This document shows positions 4,073 through 64,000 of a stretch of DNA of 64,000 nt, piece by piece. Location of the stretch: assembly GCA_951406725.2 (NCBI GenBank), contig OX597822.1:65658001-65722000 (forward strand), in the 5' to 3' direction. Made by a program: the position numbers and the translations under genes. Each line of letters starts with the position of its first letter. The first letter of the stretch is position 1. This DNA is from Octopus vulgaris. Taxonomy: Eukaryota. Under the pieces are notes generated by a model, which did not search any database, was not told the origin of the DNA, and saw nothing but the letters and a program-made list of their open reading frames with translations.

Positions 4073-5096
4073 CAATGGATTATAAGGAATAGTTCTGCTT
4101 GTAGCTACGCATCGTCGGTCCCGCATTGCAAGAAGCATCCGTATGATACAAGGATACCACGAATCCTTACAATGTCGAATAAATGCATTTCTCTCCGACG
4201 TTACAACACAAAAACAGGAGTGAATGTCAGCAATGGGGTTTTCCTATCCTGGCTGACAAGGAACATCTTGAAAAAGATAATTTTATAAGGCAATGATATA
4301 TTTATACATTCTTTGATTTACTTCTTCATGTAACATAAAACATGATTGATTTCTGATCTGCTTGCAACTAGGATTGTCAACGGAATAGACAGGGACTCTA
4401 AATTAAAGGTTCCACAGTGGCGCAAACTGTCTCCATTTCTATTGCGAATCTGTTAATCTCTAGGAAAAAAACCTGGGAATCCTAACTGACGCAAAGTCAT
4501 CTTCTGATAATAGCTCATACAGTGGACCTGGTAATGTTCTGCTTTTGACTACGGATTCCAATGCAATCGACTTATGATTGTTAAGTTATAACACTAGTAT
4601 CAATAACTGATGATAGGAAGAGATAGTGACACAGAATAATGTAATGCTGTTATAGTATTAATATTGTTCTTATAATAAAAAACAATTTTACATTAACCCG
4701 ATTGGTTACCCTATATTTTGTAGAGTACAAATTTATTATTCTGATACAATAGTATTGTTGACAATAACTTTGAAGTTTCGGCCAGCTAAGCTATCTTCGG
4801 ATACCAAACTGGAATTTGAGGGCCACTGAAATTGCTAGATGGTCGATGAACCTACAATAGGTTCATCCGTCCTTTTGGCAGGTACTTTTATTGCCCTGCT
4901 GGGTTTCTAGCAACCTTCCTTGCCAAGCAAGCTTGGTGGAGGGCAAATTTTAGTCGCCGACTACAGAACAATGCAAAAGATTAGCAATGAGAAAAAGGAA
5001 GGAGTGATAGATGTGTGTGTGTGGCGGGGAAATACTCACACACAAACACTTCCATGCATATGCACACACCTATATGTGTATATATATGTTTATACA

Positions 5097-5214
<118 letters not shown>

Positions 5215-5346: not shown

Positions 5347-6718
5347 GATCTAGGATGCATCACCCGATCTAGGATGCATCACCCAAAATCTGACATAGAA
5401 AGACTATATATACAACCTATAGAAGGTGGTAGAGGCCTTATACAACTGGAAAACTACTATAAAATAACCACCATAGGACTGCAAAAATATCTACTTCAAA
5501 AGGAAGGAAAACTGATACAAATAGCGGCAAAACACGAGCAAAACAAAAAACTGTTCTCAGTATTTAAGGAAGCTGACAAATACAAACAAGAAATCATACC
5601 ACCTAATAAATATGAAGAAGAAGAAGAAGAAGAAGAAGAAGAAGAAGAAGAAGAAGAAGAAGAAGAAGAGGAGGAGGAGGAAGAAGAAGAAGAAGAAGAA
5701 GAAGAAGAAGAAGAAGAAGAAGAAGAAGAAGAAGAAGAAGAAGAAGAAGAAGAAGAAGAAGAAGAAGAAGAAGAAGAAGAAGAAGAAGAAGAAACAACGA
5801 AAGCTATAAAACAAATGAAATCCAAACTAAAACTAGAACAGCAACAGACCATGATATAACGATGGCAAGAAAAACCGCTTCATGGCAAATCCTGGACTAA
5901 ACTAAATGCAAAAGAAATAGACAAAGAAAAATCCCAACAATTGTTGAGAAGCTCAGGACTCAAAGCAGAGACAGGGATTTTTAATTGCAGCACAAGACCA
6001 AAGCCTCCCCACCAGAAATTACCAAAAACATGTAATGAAAAGAAAGATAACAAGTAACTGCAGAATATGTGGAGATGGACAAGAAACAATAAATCATATT
6101 ATCTCTAGCTGCCCAGTCCTGGCTAAGAAGGAATATATTCACAGACATGACAGAGTTGGAACCTAGATACATTGGAAGCTATGCCAACATTATGGAATAA
6201 CAACAGAAAAAAGATGGTATAGGCACACACCAGAAAAGGTCACAGAAAACGAGAAAGCAACCATACTCTGCGATATGCCGATACACACAGATAGAGAAAT
6301 TAAGGCCAACAGACCAGATATAGTTGTCAGAGATCATGAAGAAAAATAATGCTTTCTAATTGATGTATCAATACCGGCAGATGACAACGTGTCTCTAAAA
6401 GAAATGGAGAAACTCTCAAAATACAAATACCTGGAAAATAGAGGTAACCAGAATGTGGAATCTAAAAGCAGAAACAATTCCTATCATAGTAGGTGCATTA
6501 GGCATGATAAAAAAATATTCAGACAAATACATAACAAAAACACCAGGACTTACAAACACATATAACATACAGAAAATTGCACTACTAGGCACTGCACACA
6601 TCCTACGCAGAACACTTTCCATACAATAACCATCAGAGCATCACAACAAATCACAGCACATACCTAAGGCACACAGAGCTCGGTAGTGAAGTGAAAGCAC
6701 GCTATAAAAATAAAACTA

Positions 6719-27522: not shown

Positions 27523-27693
27523 AATATTAGGGAATAAATCCAAATTTACAGGGAAAAAATCAGATTTAGGATTAAATCCAATTTTATAGTAAAATATTAT
27601 ATAATATTATTAGAGACAAAACCACTATTTTGCAAAACAAACAAGGAAAGACTTAATCAATACATAAAATTTTAATAAAAAGTCAAAAAACCG

Positions 27694-27736
27694 CCACTAC
27701 AATTGTTTCTTGTCCTGATCGACAATCTTCAGGTGG
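27694..27736 (-). ncRNA. Minimal hammerhead ribozyme in the inverted pLTR
   Basis: Minus strand reads CCAC-CTGAAGA-TTGTC(gatcag)GACAA-GAAA-CAATTG-TA-GTGG; perfect stems I and II, palindromic stem III. Confidence 0.9.
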
Positions 27737-28143
27737 ACTTCCAATCTAAAATATCAATATTTTAAAATATGAAAATAATAATTTTAAAATAATTAAAGTA
27801 TTAATGAAAAAATATAAATATATAATCTATATATAACCTATATATAATCCATATATAATCAATATATAAACAATATATAAACTAAAATAAACCTATCAAC
27901 AATTAAATATAAAATATAAAATATAAAATATAAAACAAAACAAAAAATAAACTATATATACACCCATACACATATAACTAATTATATATAACCATATCTA
28001 AATACATACACTAAATCACACACCTATATATATATCCCTATACATACACATAAAAACGTCTAGGCAACGATAAATGAATAAAATAGCCAAATACTTCAAC
28101 ACAATACTTATTCATACTCCCTCACACACACATACAACCCACA

Positions 28144-29885
28144 TTCCCGCTCTGGAAACGGACATCATTTAAAATTATGAATGGAGAAATGGAACAAATG
28201 GAATTAAAAATTATATTCACTTGGTAAAACGAACATTACTTAAAAATTATGAATGAAACAATGCAACAAAATAACAGACATCGCAAACAGACACAAACTA
28301 CCACGAATTCTTTAATAAAACTACCATGATAAACCAAAACTCACAAAAACATATTAGTAAACTAACATTATTTAAAAAAATTATGAATGGATTCTTTAAT
28401 AAAACTACTATGATAAATTAAAACTCATAAAAACATAAATGATAAAACCTCCTTTACTAAACCCTATAACATACTTATATAGCAATCCCTTTAACCTATA
28501 CATTCACACACAAATACACACACGTAAACCACACACCCATAACAAATACAAACACCCACCCCACTCACACACACCCACAAGTACATATAAGCCTCAACAT
28601 ATACACCAAACAAAATTACGTTACCAAGGAACCTAACATATGTATAAAAAGTATTCCCGCTCTGGAAACGAACATCTTTTAAAATTATGAATGGAGAAAT
28701 GGAACAAATGGAATTAAAAATTATATTCACTTGGTAAAACGAACATTACTTAAAAATTATGAATGAAACAATGCAACAAAATAACAGACATCGCAAACAG
28801 ACACAAACTACCACGAATTCTTTAATAAAACTACCATGATAAACCAAAACTCACAAAAACATATTAGTAAACTAACATTATTTAAAAAAATTATGAATGG
28901 ATTCTTTAATAAAACTACTATGATAAATTAAAACTCATAAAAACATAAATGATAAAACCTCCCTTTACTAAACCCTATAACATACTTATATAGCAATCCC
29001 TTTAACCTATACATTCACACACAAATACACACACGTAAACCACACACCCATAACAAATACAAACACCCACCCCACTCACACACACCCACAAGTACATATA
29101 AGCCTCAACATATACACCAAACAAAATTACGTTACCAAGGAACCTAACATATGTATAAAAAGTATTCCCGCTCTGGAAACGAACATCTTTTAAAATTATG
29201 AATGGAGAAATGGAACAAATGGAATTAAAAATTATATTCACTTGGTAAAACGAACATTACTTAAAAATTATGAATGAAACAATGCAACAAAATAACAGAC
29301 ATCGCAAACAGACACAAACTACCACGAATTCTTTAATAAAACTACCATGATAAACCAAAACTCACAAAAACATATTAGTAAACTAACATTATTTAAAAAA
29401 ATTATGAATGGATTCTTTAATAAAACTACTATGATAAATTAAAACTCATAAAAACATAAATGATAAAACCTCCCTTTACTAAACCCTATAACATACTTAT
29501 ATAGCAATCCCTTTAACCTATACATTCACACACAAATACACACACGTAAACCACACACCCATAACAAATACAAACACCCACCCCACTCACACACACCCAC
29601 AAGTACATATAAGCCTCAACATATACACCAAACAAAATTACGTTACCAAGGAACCTAACATATGTATAAAAAGTATTCCCGCTCTGGAAACGAACATCTT
29701 TTAAAATTATGAATGGAGAAATAGAATAAATGGAACTAAAAACAATATTCACGTGGTAAAACGAACACCACTCAAAAATTATGAATGAAACAATGCAATA
29801 AAACAACAAACATCGTAAATAGACAAATTACTACGAATTCTCTAATAAAACTACCATGATAAACCAAAACTCATAAAAACATATA
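28144..29885. repeat. Tandem repeat with a 510-511 bp unit (three near-identical copies plus a diverged partial)
   Basis: ttcccgctctggaaac recurs at 28144, 28654, 29165 and 29676. Confidence 0.95.
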
Positions 29886-30613
29886 ATGATAAAATCTCCC
29901 TTTGCTAAACTCTATAACAAACCTATATAGCAATCCCCCTAACCTAAACATTCACACACAAATACACACACGTAAACCACAGACCCACGACTTATACAAA
30001 TACCCACCTCACTCACACATACCTATACTAACGTATAAACCTTAATATACACCAAAAACCCACTCCCTCCCACACAGATAAATTAACACATACATCCCCA
30101 AACCTATATAACAAACCCATATACACATTCACACACAAATATACATACGTAAAACACACACACACAACATATACATATACTCCCTCACATATACGCATAT
30201 ACATACTCACTAAACTCGATATATACAACAATATTTACACACCCACACTCATACAGATAAATAAATTATACAACTAAAATACGCACACACTCACACACAA
30301 TCTCACATACATAAACACTCCAAAGAAAAACAACATTATTACACATAAAACGATATATAAAATACATCGTAATTAACCAGAATATCAAAAATAACAATAT
30401 GACATAAGGAGAAATAATATACATACTTTCAAGTCAGTTTCAAATTATGAAGTGAAATTAAATTCTAAGCCGTTAAAAAAATCAAACCAAAATTACGTTA
30501 CCATAGGAACATAACTTATGTATAAAAAGAATACGCGCTATGGAAGCAAACGTCATTTAAAATTATGAATGGAGAAATAGAATAAATGGAACTAAAAACT
30601 ATATTCACGCGGC

Positions 30614-33005
30614 AATGTTAAAGACTTTATTTCTAGAATTAAATGGAAAGCTTTTTACTATAATTTTTATTTATTTAATGATATTGATAGTAGGAATGAT
30701 AATTTTACCTCTAAATTTAAATCTAGAAAGGAACCTCCATTTAATAAAGAATTACAATTACTTGAAGATAGTATATGGAAGGTGGTAAAAATATTGAATT
30801 CCATAAATACCCAAATAGAAATAATGAATATTTAAGGAACTTAGCAATTAAAATTAAAGATATGAGAAATATGGATGGTATTATAGTACAATCTGATAAA
30901 ACAAGGAACCTATATAAATTAGATGTTAAATTATATGATAAACTATTAGGGAAAGAAATAATTAAAAAATATAAAATTGTTCCAGATGATATTCTTTATA
31001 ATATTAATAAGGCCTCTAAATTAGTAATGTTAAAAAAACTGAACCTTATGTACCTTTGCACCCCAGAATTACTCTTAAAGACCATAAAGATAATTTTTAT
31101 TCAGACCCTAAAGTTAGATTAATTTGCCCATGTAAATCGGACCTAGGTAAATTAAGTAAATTTATTTTAGATAAATATATCGATAAGTTAAATAAACTTA
31201 ATTATTTAAAATTATGGTTTAGTAATAACAATACATTGAAATGGTTTAATAATATTAAAGATAAAAATCGTTATAAATTTATTCAAATAGATATAGATAA
31301 TTATTATTATTCTATTAATGAAATTGTGTTTAATAAAGCGCTTATTTTCGCAATGAATAAAGTGGGTATGTCACGGGAAGAAGTTAATGTAATTAAAATG
31401 GCTAGGAAATCGCTAATTAAATATAAAAATAAATTATGGGCTAGGAATGATACTAGAGATTGTTTTGATATACCTATGGGAGCACCAGATTCTGCACAGG
31501 CTACTGATTTAGTAGGTATTTTTCTTTTATCTGAACTCCAATTAGAAAATCTTAAGATAGAGGGTGGCTTATATAGAGACGATCTTCTACTAGTTACAAA
31601 GAATTGTACTAATAGGAATCTAGAAGTATATAAGAAAAAACTATATAGTTTCTTTAAAAGATATGGTTTAAGTATTACTATATATAAGGAGAATTATAAT
31701 GTTAATTATTTAGATGTTAATTTTAATCTTATTACTGGTAAAACACAACCATATCATAAACTTAATGAGAACCTTAGATATATAAATGTTAATAGTAATC
31801 ACCCATTTTCTATTAAAAAATCGTTGATTAATAATATAAGTAAACGTATTTCATTACTCTCTTATGATATAGAGATTTTTAATAAACATGCTAATTATTA
31901 TAATGAGGCCCTTAGAGGGGCAGGTTATAATAGGAATGTTAAATTTTATAATATTAGTGATAAAGATTTAAATGATAATTTTCGAGATACTTCTAATAAT
32001 AATGATAATTTTGTTAGGTTTAGTGGTAAAAATTATAGATATTATAAAAAAAAAAATAATAAAAATGATAAAAATATAAATAAGAATAATAATAATACTA
32101 ATAATAATACAAATAAGAATAATAAAAATAAAAATAAATTTAATAATTATTATAATAATTATATTGATAAAATTAATAATATTAATAATTCCTTAAATGC
32201 TGTACATAGATATAATTCTGATAATAATTTTAATAAAATAAAGAATTATAAATATATTTATAATAATGATAATAATAATAAGGTTAATAAGAATAAAATT
32301 TGGTTAATAGTTCCTTATGGAGATCAAGTAAAAACGAATATTATTAAAGAGATTTTAGATGTTATAGAACTATTTATTAGAGATAATCGTAAATATAGAA
32401 ACATTTTCTCTATTAATAATTTTGGAGTAGGTTATTCTACCACTAATAATGTAGGTAACATTATTTCTTCATTTAATAAATATAAACTGAATAATTTTTA
32501 TAAAAATAAATTATTTGATAATAATATTAATAATGATAAGACTTATATTAATTGTACATGTAGAGATAAATCTAATTGTATATTAAATAATAATTGTGAT
32601 ATTAACGATGTAGTGTATAAATGTATAGTTACATTACATGATAATAACTTTAAGAATAATAATTACCCAAAAGCGGTTTATATAGGTTCTACTTCCTCAA
32701 AAATAAAATTAAGAATCGCACAACATATGAATTCTTTTAAAAATAAAAACTTAATCAACTCAACCGCACTTAGTAAGTACATTTGGAGTCTTAAATCACT
32801 AAATATTAATTATAGTTTAATTTGGGAAATAATTTGTAAAACTAAATCATATACTATAGGAGCTAATTGTTGTTATTTATGCTCTAATGAGTTTAAAGAA
32901 ATTTTATTTTATAAGTATGATAATTTACTTAATACTGGTGAAGAGCGCAAAATAAAATGCAGACATAAGTTACTTTACCTATATAATAAGTTTCATGATA
33001 AATAG
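30614..33005 (+). pseudogene. PLE reverse transcriptase / GIY-YIG endonuclease ORF with two 5' frameshifts
   Basis: NVKDFISRIKWKAFYY (from 30614), frameshift ~30788, SDKTRNLY, frameshift ~31038, then 649 open codons: ITLKDHK..RLICP, IDIDNYYYSI, FDIPMGAPDSAQ, GLYRDDLL, YLDV, SNHP, CTCRDKSNCILNNNC, VVY..YIG..R..QH, CYLC..E, CRH. Confidence 0.92.
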
Positions 33006-33739
33006 CATTAATAGTTCCCTATTAGGTTACTTTAGTTTAGTTTAATTTAGTTTAGATAATTATATTTATTTGGTTATGTAGTCTAGGCTTTAATTATAGT
33101 TAGTCTTTATTGATATTTCTTTGTTTTAATTAGTTCATTTTAATGTATATTAATATAACAGTTTATGGTACGTTAAAACTTTAATAATTTATATTAGATT
33201 TTTTTATTTTCTTTAATTATATATATATTTTTTTAAATTTTATTTTATTATGTATTTTTATTATGCATTTGTTATATGTATATTGGAGGATATATTTATA
33301 TGGATGATGGGTGTTATTTAGTGGTGTATATATTGAGTTTTGTATGTATGTGTGAATGTTTACGATCCCTTTGTTTTTTATTTGGTATGTTGAATTGACA
33401 GATTTTATTTGGGTATTGTCTGTTATAATAAAGTACACACACCCATAACAAATACAAGTGCCCACCTCATTCGCGCGTACCTGGAATTACATATAAGCCT
33501 CAACATATACACCAAGGGGCCACTCCGCCCCACACGGACAGATAAACACATACATCCCCAAAAATGGGCGCAATCCCACTCACACCAATCATACATGTAT
33601 ACAATTTTACACACTAGAATAATACATAACTAACCCAAATATACAGAACATACCAAATATCACCAACAAACCACCATCACAAATGAAACCCACACCCATA
33701 CAATGACAAAACTCCCCCCTCCATACCCAATTTACACCC

Positions 33740-34115
33740 ACATAGCAATCCCCATATATTCATCCATACACAAACACACATACGCAAAACACACACACAC
33801 AACACATACGTACAACCCCCCAAACACACTCATATACATACGTATCAAACTCGACATCCACAACAATACGCTCACACCCACTCACACCCAGATAAACAGA
33901 CTACACAACCAAAAACGCACACACACACGTGTGCGTATTTTAATTGTGCAATTCACCCATCCGCATGAATGCGGGCGCGAACACACCGTTGCACATATCG
34001 AGCCCAACAAGCATGCACATGTACATGTGAGGGGGTACACGCACATGCCGTGCGCGTATACCCCGCGCTTATACCCGTGCGCGAATATACACATGGAGAC
34101 TACCACACAGGTACA
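33740..34115. repeat. Local diverged hairpin in the PLE 3' region
   Basis: Centre aaaacgcacacacacacgtgtgcgtatttt (~33912-33941); arms are homologous to 30110-30295 and 34806-34990. Confidence 0.75.
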
Positions 34116-34420
34116 AACATGCATAGCAAAGGGAGCCCCATCACTACACTCAATGCATACTCTCACCCATCCGCACGGATGTGGAAGCGAATCACCGGTG
34201 CATATATTGAGGCTCATACGTAGCACTATGGAAGCGAACGTCATTGAACTTGTGAATGGAATAAATGGAATTGGGAATTGTAACCGGTTGGTAGGCTAGC
34301 GTTGCTTAGAATTGGGAATGGAATAATGTAGTAGAATGGCAGACATCGGGAATAGACGTAGGTTGCTGCGAGTTATTTATTAGGACTGCCAAGATGAACT
34401 AAAGCTCATAAATACATATA

Positions 34421-36630
34421 ATAATTTATCATGGTAGTTTTATTAAAGAATCCATTCATAATTTTTTTAAGTACTGTTGGTTTGCCGCGTGAATATAGTT
34501 TTTAGTTCCATTTATTCTATTTCTCCATTCATAATTTTAAATGACGTTTGCTTCCATAGCGCGTATTCTTTTTATACATAAGTTATGTTCCTATGGTAAC
34601 GTAATTTTGGTTTGATTTTTTTAACGGCTTAGAATTTAATTTCACTTCATAATTTGAAACTGACTTGAAAGTATGTATATTATTTCTCCTTATGTCATAT
34701 TGTTATTTTTGATATTCTGGTTAATTACGATGTATTTTATATATCGTTTTATGTGTAATAATGTTGTTTTTCTTTGGAGTGTTTATGTATGTGAGATTGT
34801 GTGTGAGTGTGCGCGTATTTTAGTTGTATAATTTATTTATCTGTATGAGTGTGGGTGTGTAAATATTGTGGTATATATCGAGTTTAGTGAGTATGTATAT
34901 GCGTATATGTGAGGGAGTATATGTATATGTTGTGTGTGTGTGTTTTACGTATGTATATTTGTGTGTGAATGTGTATATGGGTTTGTTATATAGGTTTGGG
35001 GATGTATGTGTTAATTTATCTGTGTGGGAGGGAGTGGGTTTTTGGTGTATATTGAGGTTTATACGTTAGTATAGGTATGTGTGAGTGAGGTGGGTATTTG
35101 TATAAGTCGTGGGTCTGTGGTTTACGTGTGTGTATTTGTGTGTGAATGTTTAGGTTAGGGAGATTGCTATATAGGTTTGTTATAGAGTTTAGCAAAGGGA
35201 GATTTTATCATTATATGTTTTTATGAGTTTTGGTTTATCATGGTAGTTTTATTAGAGAATTCGTAGTAATTTGTCTATTTACGATGTTTGTTGTTTTATT
35301 GCATTGTTTCATTCATAATTTTTGAGTGGTGTTCGTTTTACCACGTGAATATTATTTTTAATTCCATTTTTCCATTTCTCCATTCATAGTTTTAAAAGAT
35401 GTTCGTTTCCAGAGCGGGAATACTTTTTATACATATGTTAGGTTCCTTGGTAACGTAATTTTGTTTGGTGTATATGTTGAGGCTTATATGTACTTGTGGG
35501 TGTGTGTGAGTGGGGTGGGTGTTTGTATTTGTTATGGGTGTGTGGTTTACGTGTGTGTATTTGTGTGTGAATGTATAGGTTAAAGGGATTGCTATATAAG
35601 TATGTTATAGGGTTTAGTAAAGGGAGGTTTTATCATTTATGTTTTTATGAGATTTAATTTATCATAGTAGTTTTATTAAAGAATCCATTCATAATTTTTT
35701 TAAATAATGTTAGTTTACCGCGTGAATATAATTTTTAATTCCATTTATTCTATTTCTCCATTCATAATTTTAAATGACGTTTGCTTCCATAGCGCGTATT
35801 CTTTTTATACATAAGTTATGTTCCTATGGTAACGTAATTTTGGTTTGATGTTTTTAACGGCTTAGAATTTAATTTCACTTCATAATTTGAAACTGACTTG
35901 AAAGTATGTATATTATTTCTCCTTATGTCATATTGTTATTTTTGATATTCTGGTTACTTACGATGTATTTTATATATCGTATTATGTGTAATAATGTTGT
36001 TTTTCTTTGGAGTGTTTATGTATGTGGGATTGTGTGTGAGTGTGTGCGTGTTTTGGTTGTGTAGTTTGTTTGTCTGTATGAGTGTGGGTGTGTTAATATT
36101 GTTGTATATATCGAGTTTAGTGAGTATGTATATGTATATGGTGTGTGTTTTACGTATGTATATTTGTGTGTGAATGTGTTTATGGGTTTGCTATATAGGT
36201 TTGGGGATGTATGTGTTTATTTGTCTGTGTGGGGTTGAGTGGGTTTTTGTAGTATATGTTGAGGTTTATATGTATGTATAGGTATGTGTGAGTGGGGTGG
36301 GTATTTGTATATGTCGTGGGTGTGTGGTTTACGTGTGTGTATTTGTGTGTGAATGTTTAGGTTAGGGGGATTGCTATATAGGTATGTTATAGAGTTTAGT
36401 AAAGGGAGATTTTATCATTATATGTTTTTGTGAGTTTTGGTTTATCATGGTAGTTTTATTAAAGAATTCGTGGTAGTTTGTGTCTGTTTGCGATGTCTGT
36501 TATTTTGTTGCATTGTTTCATTCATAATTTTTAAGTAATGTTCGTTTTACCAAGTGAATATAATTTTTAATTCCATTTGTTCCATTTCTCCATTCATAAT
36601 TTTAAATGATGTCCGTTTCCAGAGCGGGAA
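34421..36630. repeat. Tandem duplication with a ~1233 bp period in the right arm
   Basis: ccgcgtgaatata at 34485 and 35718, with collinear sequence following each. Confidence 0.85.
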
Positions 36631-37037
36631 TGTGGGTTGTATGTGTGTGTGAGGGAGTATGAATAAGTATTGTGTTGAAGTATTTGGCTATTTTATTTAT
36701 TTATCGTTGCCTAGACGTTTTTATGTGTATGTATAGGGATATATATATAGGTGTGTGATTTAGTGTATGTATTTAGGTATGGTTATATATAATTAGTTAT
36801 ATGTGTATGGGTGTATATATAGTTTATTTTTTGTTTTGTTTTATATTTTATATTTTATATTTTATATTTAATTGTTGATAGGTTTATTTTAGTTTATATA
36901 TTGTTTATATATTGATTATATATGGATTATATATAGGTTATATATAGATTATATATTTATATTTTTTCATTAATACTTTAATTATTTTAAAATTATTATT
37001 TTTATATTTTAAAATATTGATATTTTAGATTGGAAGT

Positions 37038-37080
37038 CCACCTGAAGATTGTCGATTAGGACAAGAAACAATTGTAGTGG
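37038..37080 (+). ncRNA. Minimal hammerhead ribozyme in the sense pLTR
   Basis: CCAC-CTGAAGA-TTGTC(gattag)GACAA-GAAA-CAATTG-TA-GTGG; predicted cleavage after GTA. Confidence 0.9.
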
Positions 37081-37160
37081 CGGTTTTTTTGACTTTTTAT
37101 TAAAATTTTATGTATTGATTAAGTCTTTCCTTGTATATGCAAAATAGTGGTTATGTCTCT

Positions 37161-60170: not shown

Positions 60171-60830
60171 AGGTGCGATGAGTAAATTGAGGCCATACTA
60201 TATTTTTAATTTCGCGCATGCGCACTGCTTTCTTTTGATTTTGTCGACTACACGGTATAGTGGGTTCAGTTTGGCACCGTCTGATGCTATTCACTTTGCA
60301 AGAAATCTGGAGGCGACATGCTGTACTGCTTGGCATTCTTGCCGGAAACACCAATACTAACTTTTCAGAGTGATTGGGTGTCAATCTGAGGACTGTGCAG
60401 AGGATTCAGAAACAGTTGGGTGAGTCTAATGGTGATTACGAAAGTACAGCAACTCGAAAAACTTACTCTGATCGTCTTGATAAGAAAGGAAATCCTAAAT
60501 TCGTTCGCGAGGTCCAGAGCGTGATTAACAACGATCCCTCCAAGTCAGTCAGATGCATCGCCATAGACATAGGAGTGTCTGAGTTTCTTATCAAGCAGGC
60601 AGTGCATGACGACATTAGGTATTTCTTGTATAAGACGAGAATTGGCCAGTTTTTATCCCAAGTCATCAAAGGCAGGAGCTACGAAGAACCGCGCTACGAA
60701 GATTTTGAACAAACTCAAACAACCCCTCCAACCGAAATGCTAGGCTTTTTCACAGACGAGAAAATATCCTGCCAAGAGCAGATGGTGAACACAAAAGTCA
60801 ACCATTGGTTTGCCGTGTCCCCAAATTGGA
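60167..60830 (+). mobile_element. Tc1/mariner (maT-like) 5' remnant: TIR, HTH and start of the catalytic domain
   Basis: LGVNLRTVQRIQKQL..INNDPSKSVRCIAIDIGVSEFLIKQAVHDDI..FFTDEK. Confidence 0.75.
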
Positions 60831-61080
60831 ATGAGTAATTTAAGAAATATTTGTTCTTAACATTAGGAATGATATTTCAATTTTAACTTCTTGATTTAGA
60901 ACCGCGTACCTTACCGAGAAACTTTCATGCCAGAAGGTACTCAAGCTTTTACCTTGCAATTTTTCCTCTAGTTCATTCATGAATATCCTATATTTCTGTT
61001 GTCGCTCATATACCTCCTGTAATGGTTAGATAATACTCAATGATATGTGTGTATGTGTTTATATGTAACGATAAACGTTG

Positions 61081-62760: not shown

Positions 62761-64000
62761 AATAAATGTTTTTATATATAAAGAACGTGAAATACAGGAA
62801 GGGACGAACACGGAAAACAGACAAATCATTCGAAGCCTTCAATCTTCAGTCAGACACCGAATCATCATAGCAAATTTCGGCTGTTCAATTCTGATATTTG
62901 CTCCAACTCGGCCAGCCCCAAGAAAAAAACTAAGCTGTAAGCATTAGATTTCTTGGTAGAAGACAAGAATGTAAACCGCAAGAGACGGATGTAAATACAA
63001 GAGACGAAAACGAAATTGAAAACAGTAATGGATAAACAAAATATAACGGTGGTTGTCTTACGACTTTAGACCAAATGAGACAAAAACAACAACAACATAG
63101 CAGCTGGCGTAGAAATAATTACCTTTTCGGTAAAGGGGACAGATGTTGGTCGAGATACGATCGCCAACAGAATGGTTAAGAAGCAGGAGAGAGAGAGAAA
63201 GAGAGACAGAGAGAGAGGGAATCAAAGAGGGTGGAAGGCAGGGGACAGAATCAGTGACCAAGAGAAAAGGAGAAAGAAGGGATTGAGGAGGATGGGAGGA
63301 AGAGGGGGGAAGAATCGGAGGGCGCCAAAATAGTTTGGTAAAGAAGCAATGGCGGGTAGGAAAGAGAAAGTATATAGAAGTCGTGCAGGGTTTAAAATTG
63401 GATAAACAAACGGGGGGGGGGGTGCACGTAACGCCGCAATAATATAAGAATAAATGTTTTATTCTCCTTTTCTCTTGGTCACTGATTCTGTCCCCTGCCT
63501 TCCACCCTCTTTGATTCCTCTCTCTCTGTCTCTCTCTCTCTCCTGCAACCTGCTGCTTCTTAACCATTCTGTTGGCGATCGTATCTCGACCAACATGTGT
63601 CCCCTCTACCGAAAAGGTAATTATTTCTACGCCAGCTGCTATGTTGTTGTTGTTTTTGTCTCATTTGGTCTAAAGTCGTAAGACAACCACCGTTATATTT
63701 TGTTTATCCATTACTGTTTTCAATTTCGTTTTCGTCTCTTGTATTTACATCCGTCTCTTGCGGTTTACATTCTTGTCTTCTACCAAGAAATCTAATGCTT
63801 ACAGCTTAGTTTTTTTTCTTGGGACTGGCCGAGTTGGAGCAAATATCAGAATTGAACAGCCGAAATTTGCTATGATGACTCGGTGTCTGACTGAAGATTG
63901 AAGGCTTCGAATGATTTGTCTGTGTTCCGTGTTCGTCCCTTCCTGTTTTTCACGTTCTTTATATATAAAAACATTTATTCTTATATTATTGCGGCGTTAC
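62755..64000. repeat. Young ~520 bp inverted repeat with a nested inversion, running off the window
   Basis: 62755-63274 is the reverse complement of 63462-63984; 63428-63460 is the reverse complement of 63968-64000; begins in (TA)n. Confidence 0.9.

Follow-up and report, generated by a model that had tools for sequence, protein, structure and literature searches.

An editing-type A>G signature in predicted fold-backs of a Penelope-like retrotransposon lineage from Octopus vulgaris

Introduction

In animals, double-stranded RNA derived from repeats is subject to A-to-I hyperediting, the highest levels being reported in octopus and frog; depletion of G at the upstream neighbour is an ADAR motif shared across animals, and a 3' preference for A is reported for invertebrates (PMC5625713). 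At the level of reverse-transcribed genomes, ADAR-type hypermutation is described for avian retroviruses, namely in the U3 of Rous-associated virus and in an inverted repeat of avian leukosis virus, with nearly 50% of the As of the inverted repeat changed from A to G (PMC12925331). APOBEC enzymes leave another signature in vertebrate LTR elements, that is G>A changes via deamination of C in the cDNA, which is reported absent in 19 invertebrate genomes by an article whose main text does not contain the word ADAR (PMC4866542). In the literature covered, mostly open-access articles, no description was found of a Penelope-like element, or of any other non-viral retrotransposon lineage, in which edits of ADAR type had become fixed.

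Penelope-like elements (PLEs) of the Hydra clade are characterised by a C-terminal GIY-YIG domain, a DKT motif, a CxCx5C linker, CxxC and CxH motifs around the conserved E and N, lack of the CCHH motif, a canonical hammerhead and insertion at (TA)n, in a description the main text of which does not use the word hairpin (PMC8557442). The present work deals with an element resembling them, located in a window of 64,000 nucleotides of the Octopus vulgaris genome at 65658001-65722000 of contig OX597822.1 (the window being the whole stretch of DNA analysed, with positions counted from its first letter). From the letters alone, the initial annotation had proposed that fold-back RNA of a PLE was hyperedited and then reinserted into the genome. 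As far as sequence patterns can tell, this proposal finds support in the direction of the changes, their confinement to predicted duplexes, the sparing of As that follow a G and the load shared among copies.

Materials and Methods

The genome surveyed amounts to 2.80 Gb in 227 contigs. Locus searches scored the best 40 of 484, the best 40 of 242 and the best 40 of 175 candidates, hence a partial sample; within loci L001-L030 and L081-L170, 48 distinct copies span the whole of the inverted block considered below. The direction of change was polarised by extant relatives devoid of the new fold-back (L144, L151, L143, L202 and L203; L206 was left out), and A>G in the window copy was scored against five pre-inversion relatives only at columns where at least 4 of the 5 agree. 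The short-seed repeat search and the unmasked G-U helix scan were swamped by microsatellite matches, and longer hairpins escape the 300-nt fold scan. Contigs from unmatched public runs presumed to be RNA also cover the region; the A/G variation found there corresponds to DNA paralogue variation and, editing being inseparable from paralogy in such contigs, no weight is placed on them regarding expression or editing.

Results

Element anatomy and class

The features of the locus are collected in Table 1. The RT/GIY-YIG ORF is open over 661 aa (31020-33005), its N-terminal part being scattered over several frames in the window copy, which is ~280 bases shorter at the upstream end than full-length relatives. 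The family is a young one, as frames of 828-841 aa are open in 8 of the 17 relatives checked and the RT protein is 95-99% identical among many copies. A Pfam search of the ORF gave no useful match, and the domain order, YRDD then VYIG...RIAQH, was read by eye. DKG is replaced by DKT (SDKTR), the CxCx5C linker reads CTCRDKSNC, CxxC is CYLC and CxH is CRH, and the N-terminal motif RIKWK has a K where the RWK of the Hydra clade has an R. A long Asn/Lys-rich low-complexity linker, in frame throughout, separates RT and endonuclease (32040-32600). The hammerhead motif, mirrored at 27694-27736 on the minus strand, was retrieved by pattern search in 15 of the 15 loci of the element family tested; on the region, Rfam made no hammerhead call and returned nothing beyond microsatellite-driven miRNA matches. 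Besides, (TA)n is present beyond both ends of the inserted unit. By its motifs, the element is classified as a Hydra-type Penelope-like retrotransposon.

Table 1. Features of the element and its surroundings in the window; pairing and the hammerhead motif are predicted, the Hydra-type assignment is by motifs, and A>G is scored against pre-inversion relatives.
Feature	Positions	Strand	Characteristics
Inverted 5'-truncated copy of the element 3' end (left arm)	27666..30615	-	98-99% identical to the right arm
Penelope-like retrotransposon copy, Hydra-type	30614..37134	+	5'-truncated; non-coding 3' region of 4.1 kb; abuts a (TA)n run
ORF, RT with C-terminal GIY-YIG	30614..33005	+	KWK, DKT, YRDD, CxCx5C, VYIG, CxxC and CxH motifs
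Inverted block	33440..34425	-	Opposite orientation in sister copies L144, L202, L203, L204, L206
Second A>G-rich arm	33440..33560	+	A>G at 12/46 As; predicted pairing with 35464-35544 and 36200-36326
Older G-U hairpin, flipped by the inversion	33701..34146	-	Inherited from the earlier episode
Arm C	34222..34420	+	A>G at 34/98 As, C>T at 0/22 Cs, 2 transversions
Nearest, shorter partner of arm C	34430..34570 (duplex 34422-34570)	+	Predicted to fold locally (z -9.2); A>G at 3/33 As
Second partner of arm C	35210..35420 (duplex 35205-35425)	+	A>G at 9/56 As
Best partner of arm C	36410..36630 (duplex 36412-36632)	+	A>G at 11/59 As
Minimal hammerhead-ribozyme motif, predicted	37038..37080	+	Core CUGANGA...GAAA, GUA site, short stems

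Only a few base differences, without direction and without any excess of A>G, separate the left arm from the right arm. The left arm contains a 511-bp unit in three near-identical tandem copies (28143-29675); this triplication is not found in that form in the right arm and could stem from template jumping or from assembly expansion. Over the 3' region (33005-37134, compared with L091-L097, L143-L145 and L151), duplications, inversions and deletions far outpace the change of the ORF, and G-U-rich sense folds with C-poor arms are encountered in the 3' regions of the older subfamily copies L095, L160, L163, L164, L167, L159, L092 and L094. A second Hydra-like family is present in the genome (L061-L073; ~55% RT identity, long open frames, 3' region of 2.4 kb), in which the 5 loci tested out of the 13 fetched exhibit neither a long G-U hairpin nor the hammerhead motif of the window family. 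Elsewhere in the window, an unrelated 305-bp inverted repeat was observed (62916-63220 and 63519-63823, 95% complementary, spacer of 298 bp), as well as two ORF fragments (5347-5859 and 60374-60838), which we take to resemble a non-LTR retrotransposon tail with a GAA repeat inside and a piece of Tc1/mariner-like transposase.

Direction of change and the predicted duplex

The initial annotation started from an ungapped alignment of 34321-34420 with 28256-28355, the counts of which were reproduced exactly, i.e. 17 G/A and 9 T/C differences, no reverse transition and 6 transversions. In register, this alignment has 32 mismatches, vs. 68-78 when it is shifted into any of 12 neighbouring registers (-6 to +6), and the two-sided binomial probability of the 26:0 asymmetry of transitions is 3e-8. 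The comparator sits inside the inverted left arm and is the mirror of 36420-36518; its reverse complement does lie downstream as had been stated, 27666-28354 being the reverse complement of 36420-37108 with 98% identity, and 34321-34420 was thus in effect compared with its own downstream complement. The G-U duplex announced on the ORF-sense (+) strand was recovered as well, with 81 Watson-Crick pairs, 28 G-U pairs and 6 mismatches predicted between 34308-34422 and 36417-36531, and the right arm is indeed rich in G/T and poor in C.

Among these 26 sites, 16 of the 17 G/A positions are A in the five relatives and all 9 T/C positions are T, which amounts to 16 A>G changes in arm C and 9 A>G changes in its partner on the ORF-sense strand, a single difference in 26 going the other way. 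In other words, 25 of the 26 transitions polarise as A>G on the ORF-sense strand rather than as C>T/G>A, and the strand-specific C-to-T deamination considered from the start as an alternative accounts for 0 of the 9 C/T sites of the starting alignment. Assembly error is excluded by recurrence, since the A/G states of 34222-34420 are found again in 47 of the 47 sampled post-inversion genomic copies and are carried by contigs from 4 of the 4 public runs.

Over the whole of arm C, the changes at A consist of 34 A>G, 1 A>C and 0 A>T, the A>G share reaching ~35% while the neighbouring sequence diverges by a few percent. Arm C can pair with three downstream segments, and the predicted duplexes with 34422-34570, 35205-35425 and 36412-36632 amount to -119, -194 and -210 kcal/mol in sense orientation, vs. 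-65, -94 and -97 kcal/mol for their weaker antisense equivalents. Regarding the second A>G-rich arm, its partners display A>G at 5/47, 2/36 and 5/33 As.

An inversion behind the new fold-back

In subfamily B (L151, L143, L158, L145, L162 and L091), there is a single G/T-rich unit and no inverted arm. In subfamily C (L144, L202, L203 and L204), an 870-nt sense-strand fold-back is predicted and the block 33440-34425 is reversed relative to the window, while L206 (identical with L020) retains the old orientation of the block, yet already lacks the ~140 bases missing from the window's family. Together, the orientation of the block in subfamily C and in L206 shows that an inversion flipped the old hairpin and made the G/T-rich unit into the arm 34222-34420.

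On the minus strand, the flipped hairpin is predicted to form a G-U rod of ~440 nt (33701-34146, -247 kcal/mol, z -19.5; over 33750-34149, -210 on the minus strand vs. -85 on the plus strand), its folding strand being opposite to that of the arm C hairpin. Reading this minus-strand hairpin as a sign of selection or of editing on two strands was dropped once the relatives showed the block to be inverted.

Confinement to duplexes, strand and neighbour context

The skew is confined to regions able to pair, as expected under the initial proposal: A>G is found at 81 of 408 As in segments scored as paired against 4 of 1104 in unpaired sequence, ORF included (p=1e-43), where pairing is predicted and five pairable but nearly unchanged segments are left out of both groups, the paired total becoming 83/658 when they are counted in. 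The five comprise 34800-35040 (0/41 As), 35040-35210 (0/34), 35700-35850 (0/35) and the two old-hairpin arms in the window copy (1/86 and 1/54). In the ORF, A>G is present at 1 of the 772 As scored. Among the changes shared within block 33440-34425, A>G stands at 114/363 and T>C at 1/159.

Concerning neighbours, the bias expected of ADAR was retrieved when five comparisons were pooled, As after a 5' G being spared (9/53) relative to all others (231/555, p=0.0003; U 112/245, A 79/181, C 40/129). This sparing is weak in the 3' arm of L144 (8/19) and marginal in arm C taken alone (0/8, p=0.048). In the same five pooled comparisons, a preference for A at the 3' neighbour was not significant (A 75/185, C 55/114, G 20/46, U 90/263; chi-square p=0.07).

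The opposite base provides a further view of the process, as ADAR prefers an A opposite C. After the inversion, the former G-U pairs of the old hairpin are A-C mismatches in the sense RNA, and in later lineages plus-strand A>G in 33701-34146 is found at 20/70 As opposite C vs. 7/57 opposite U, a modest difference (p=0.03). With plus-strand A>G gained after the flip and minus-strand A>G at 1/61, the process tracks the sense strand through the inversion. By comparison, C>T in the old hairpin is indifferent to pairing (15/72 opposite A vs. 12/58 opposite G, p=1); mismatch repair of a cDNA hairpin and selection for perfect pairing, both entertained for the old hairpin, were ruled out because no excess of C>T is seen opposite A. 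As for candidate enzymes, 4 genome loci match the deaminase domain PF02137 (A_deamin) above cut-off.

A second bias was observed over 33440-34420 in the 47 copies, with sense-strand C>T at 67/262 vs. G>A at 4/105, the former occurring at 48/142 Cs before A, 10/28 before G and 3/68 before C. Sense-strand C>T accrues in later lineages regardless of pairing; it is a second, slower asymmetric process, which ADAR does not explain.

An earlier episode in the sister subfamily

In L144 (G000:C17:42875324-42885323), the sense strand is predicted to form a near-uninterrupted hairpin of 870 nt at ~4317-5188 (-577 kcal/mol), with 253 Watson-Crick pairs, 170 G-U pairs and 9 mismatches. Relative to L151, which has no hairpin, its two arms display A>G at 112/194 and 52/108 As, together with C>T at 7/104 and 2/24, and a like A>G excess is seen in the 3' arm against the other five copies of subfamily B. 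In the unpaired stretch beside the hairpin, A>G falls to 2/115. From these sequence comparisons, we infer that a cycle of inversion, duplex formation, editing and re-insertion probably ran at least twice in the element family. In older subfamilies, the sense-strand G-U-rich folds of 10 of 10 stretches are far lower in energy than those of shuffled sequences, the stretches having been selected for their ability to fold and having two C-poor arms; these folds are suggestive and possibly correspond to the saturated remains of earlier cycles.

Inheritance among copies

The 47 post-inversion copies carry from 29 to 51 A>G changes each in arm C, and the one pre-inversion copy carries 0. Copies with 1-28 changes in arm C are absent from the 48 sampled, which, in a partial sample, is weak evidence for a burst. 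As many as 74 As of arm C are read as G in at least one copy, and 7 in every one of the 47. Among the 8 copies that have diverged least, 14 arm C changes are common to all and 67 sites are hit jointly, in sets that are not nested. In the four-gamete test on arm C, 703 of 1485 site pairs fail, which fits either sites that changed more than once or recombination between copies.

Copies that are otherwise more diverged carry a higher A>G load (Spearman 0.76 in arm C and 0.83 in the left arm of the old hairpin, with p-values that overstate the support because the copies are related). Along with the two episodes, this load rising across copies upholds the suggestion that editing went through repeated cycles. 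Variants common to at least 2 copies keep pairing in 31/38 and 29/32 cases vs. 31/72 and 12/41 for private variants; such retention of pairing by shared variants is what editing predicts, to which selection may add.

Discussion

Considering these sequence data as a whole, it is very probable that host ADAR edited the folded-back transcript and that the RT of the element itself carried these edits over into germline DNA, repeatedly and in an amplifying lineage. Inversion of 33440-34425 generated a new inverted repeat, the sense transcript of which would fold back as predicted; ADAR would then deaminate A to I in the duplex, on both arms, the element's RT would copy I as G in the course of germline insertion, and the edited copies would in turn serve as templates for further rounds. 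Each edit would convert an A-U pair into a G-U pair in the daughter RNA, which would explain that the genomic arms now read as a G-U duplex.

An adenosine deaminase could also have acted on DNA rather than RNA, either on the sense strand as it folds back in the course of second-strand synthesis or within an RNA:DNA hybrid. The same A>G direction would be predicted, and a DNA-editing ADAT has reportedly been found in amphioxus. Moreover, ADARs are described as editing the DNA of hybrids in model substrates (PMC12925331). Yet, the changes follow the intramolecular sense duplex and not the whole hybrid, as seen from the 1/772 As of the ORF, and the first-strand cDNA would form a strong minus-strand hairpin, where minus-strand A>G is nevertheless limited to 1/61; deamination of DNA is thus considered improbable. 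Misreading of A by the element's RT or during second-strand synthesis, while duplex RNA is being unwound, would likewise leave heritable, strand-specific and structure-linked changes. An adenine-specific error of RT is known from diversity-generating retroelements, where it takes the form A>N, whereas the change in arm C is almost purely A>G, and both the neighbour bias and the bias towards A-C mismatches fit ADAR. The second Hydra-like family is neutral in this respect, its 5 loci being devoid of long G-U hairpins, and misreading by the polymerase is regarded as very improbable.

Selection alone, whereby ordinary mutations would be filtered for their ability to keep pairs until a G-U-rich duplex results, draws on the fact that pairing is retained much more often by shared than by private variants. 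Nonetheless, C>T at G-C pairs would keep pairing equally well and is found at 0/22 in arm C, filtering cannot raise a rate to 35% A>G amid a divergence of a few percent, pairing has no bearing on C>T in the old hairpin, and the 5' G bias is not predicted. As a sole cause, selection is therefore largely refuted and its probability is decidedly low, although it may act on top of editing. The sense-strand C>T excess of later lineages could be taken in favour of strand-specific C-to-T deamination, with which an artefact of assembly may be grouped; with 25 of the 26 differences being A>G according to the relatives, and the states recurring across 47 copies as well as public contigs, the likelihood of either is close to nil. 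Editing by ADAR on the folded-back RNA, followed by reverse transcription, is accordingly retained as the preferred reading.

Beyond this, a ratchet may be imagined, in which every new inversion yields a perfect duplex, ADAR turns this into a G-U duplex in the daughters, and wobble-rich lineages keep amplifying by escaping silencing directed at dsRNA. We hold this extension to be possible but rather unlikely; if true, the host editing enzyme would domesticate the element, or else be exploited by it, and the richness in G/U of 3' regions throughout the element family would be accounted for.

RNA editing is usually held to be non-heritable; in the present case, a signature of editing type is passed on and built up within an amplifying germline lineage. 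If the reading by ADAR is true, RNA editing would be a source of heritable mutation, and editing would have to be active where the element retrotransposes in the germ line. The case offers unedited relatives, two episodes and a strand flip as an internal control, and may constitute a natural record of editing-site preference over many rounds. Whether editing restricts or helps retrotransposons thereby becomes a question testable from genome sequence.

Comparison with known systems

With the Hydra clade, as described in the main text of PMC8557442, the window element shares the motifs listed above plus an inverted 5'-truncated flank, but it differs by its length of ~6.5-6.8 kb vs. <3 kb and by KWK in place of RWK. 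The greater length results from the 4.1-kb, fast-rearranging 3' region with its G-U fold-backs.

The hyperediting of animal dsRNA likewise involves clustered A>G in inverted repeats and depletion of upstream G, but is known at the RNA level, while the pattern is here read from DNA alone (PMC5625713). In the LTR elements edited by APOBEC, a host deaminase signature is also fixed in genomic copies, with strand and context biases; that signature is G>A in LTR elements, whereas the one in the window element is A>G, limited to duplexes and in a non-LTR element, which would make it an ADAR counterpart, in an invertebrate, to APOBEC editing of retroelements (PMC4866542). The nearest published precedent is that of the avian retroviruses, where A>G similarly affects an inverted repeat, at as many as roughly half of its As, and reaches DNA via reverse transcription. 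The avian cases, as reported in PMC12925331, are isolated viral clones, whereas here 47 copies of a non-viral germline retrotransposon with two successive fold-backs have such changes in common and accumulate them. The present case contributes a lineage that amplifies while gaining edits, the succession of two fold-backs, and the control provided by the flip of strand.
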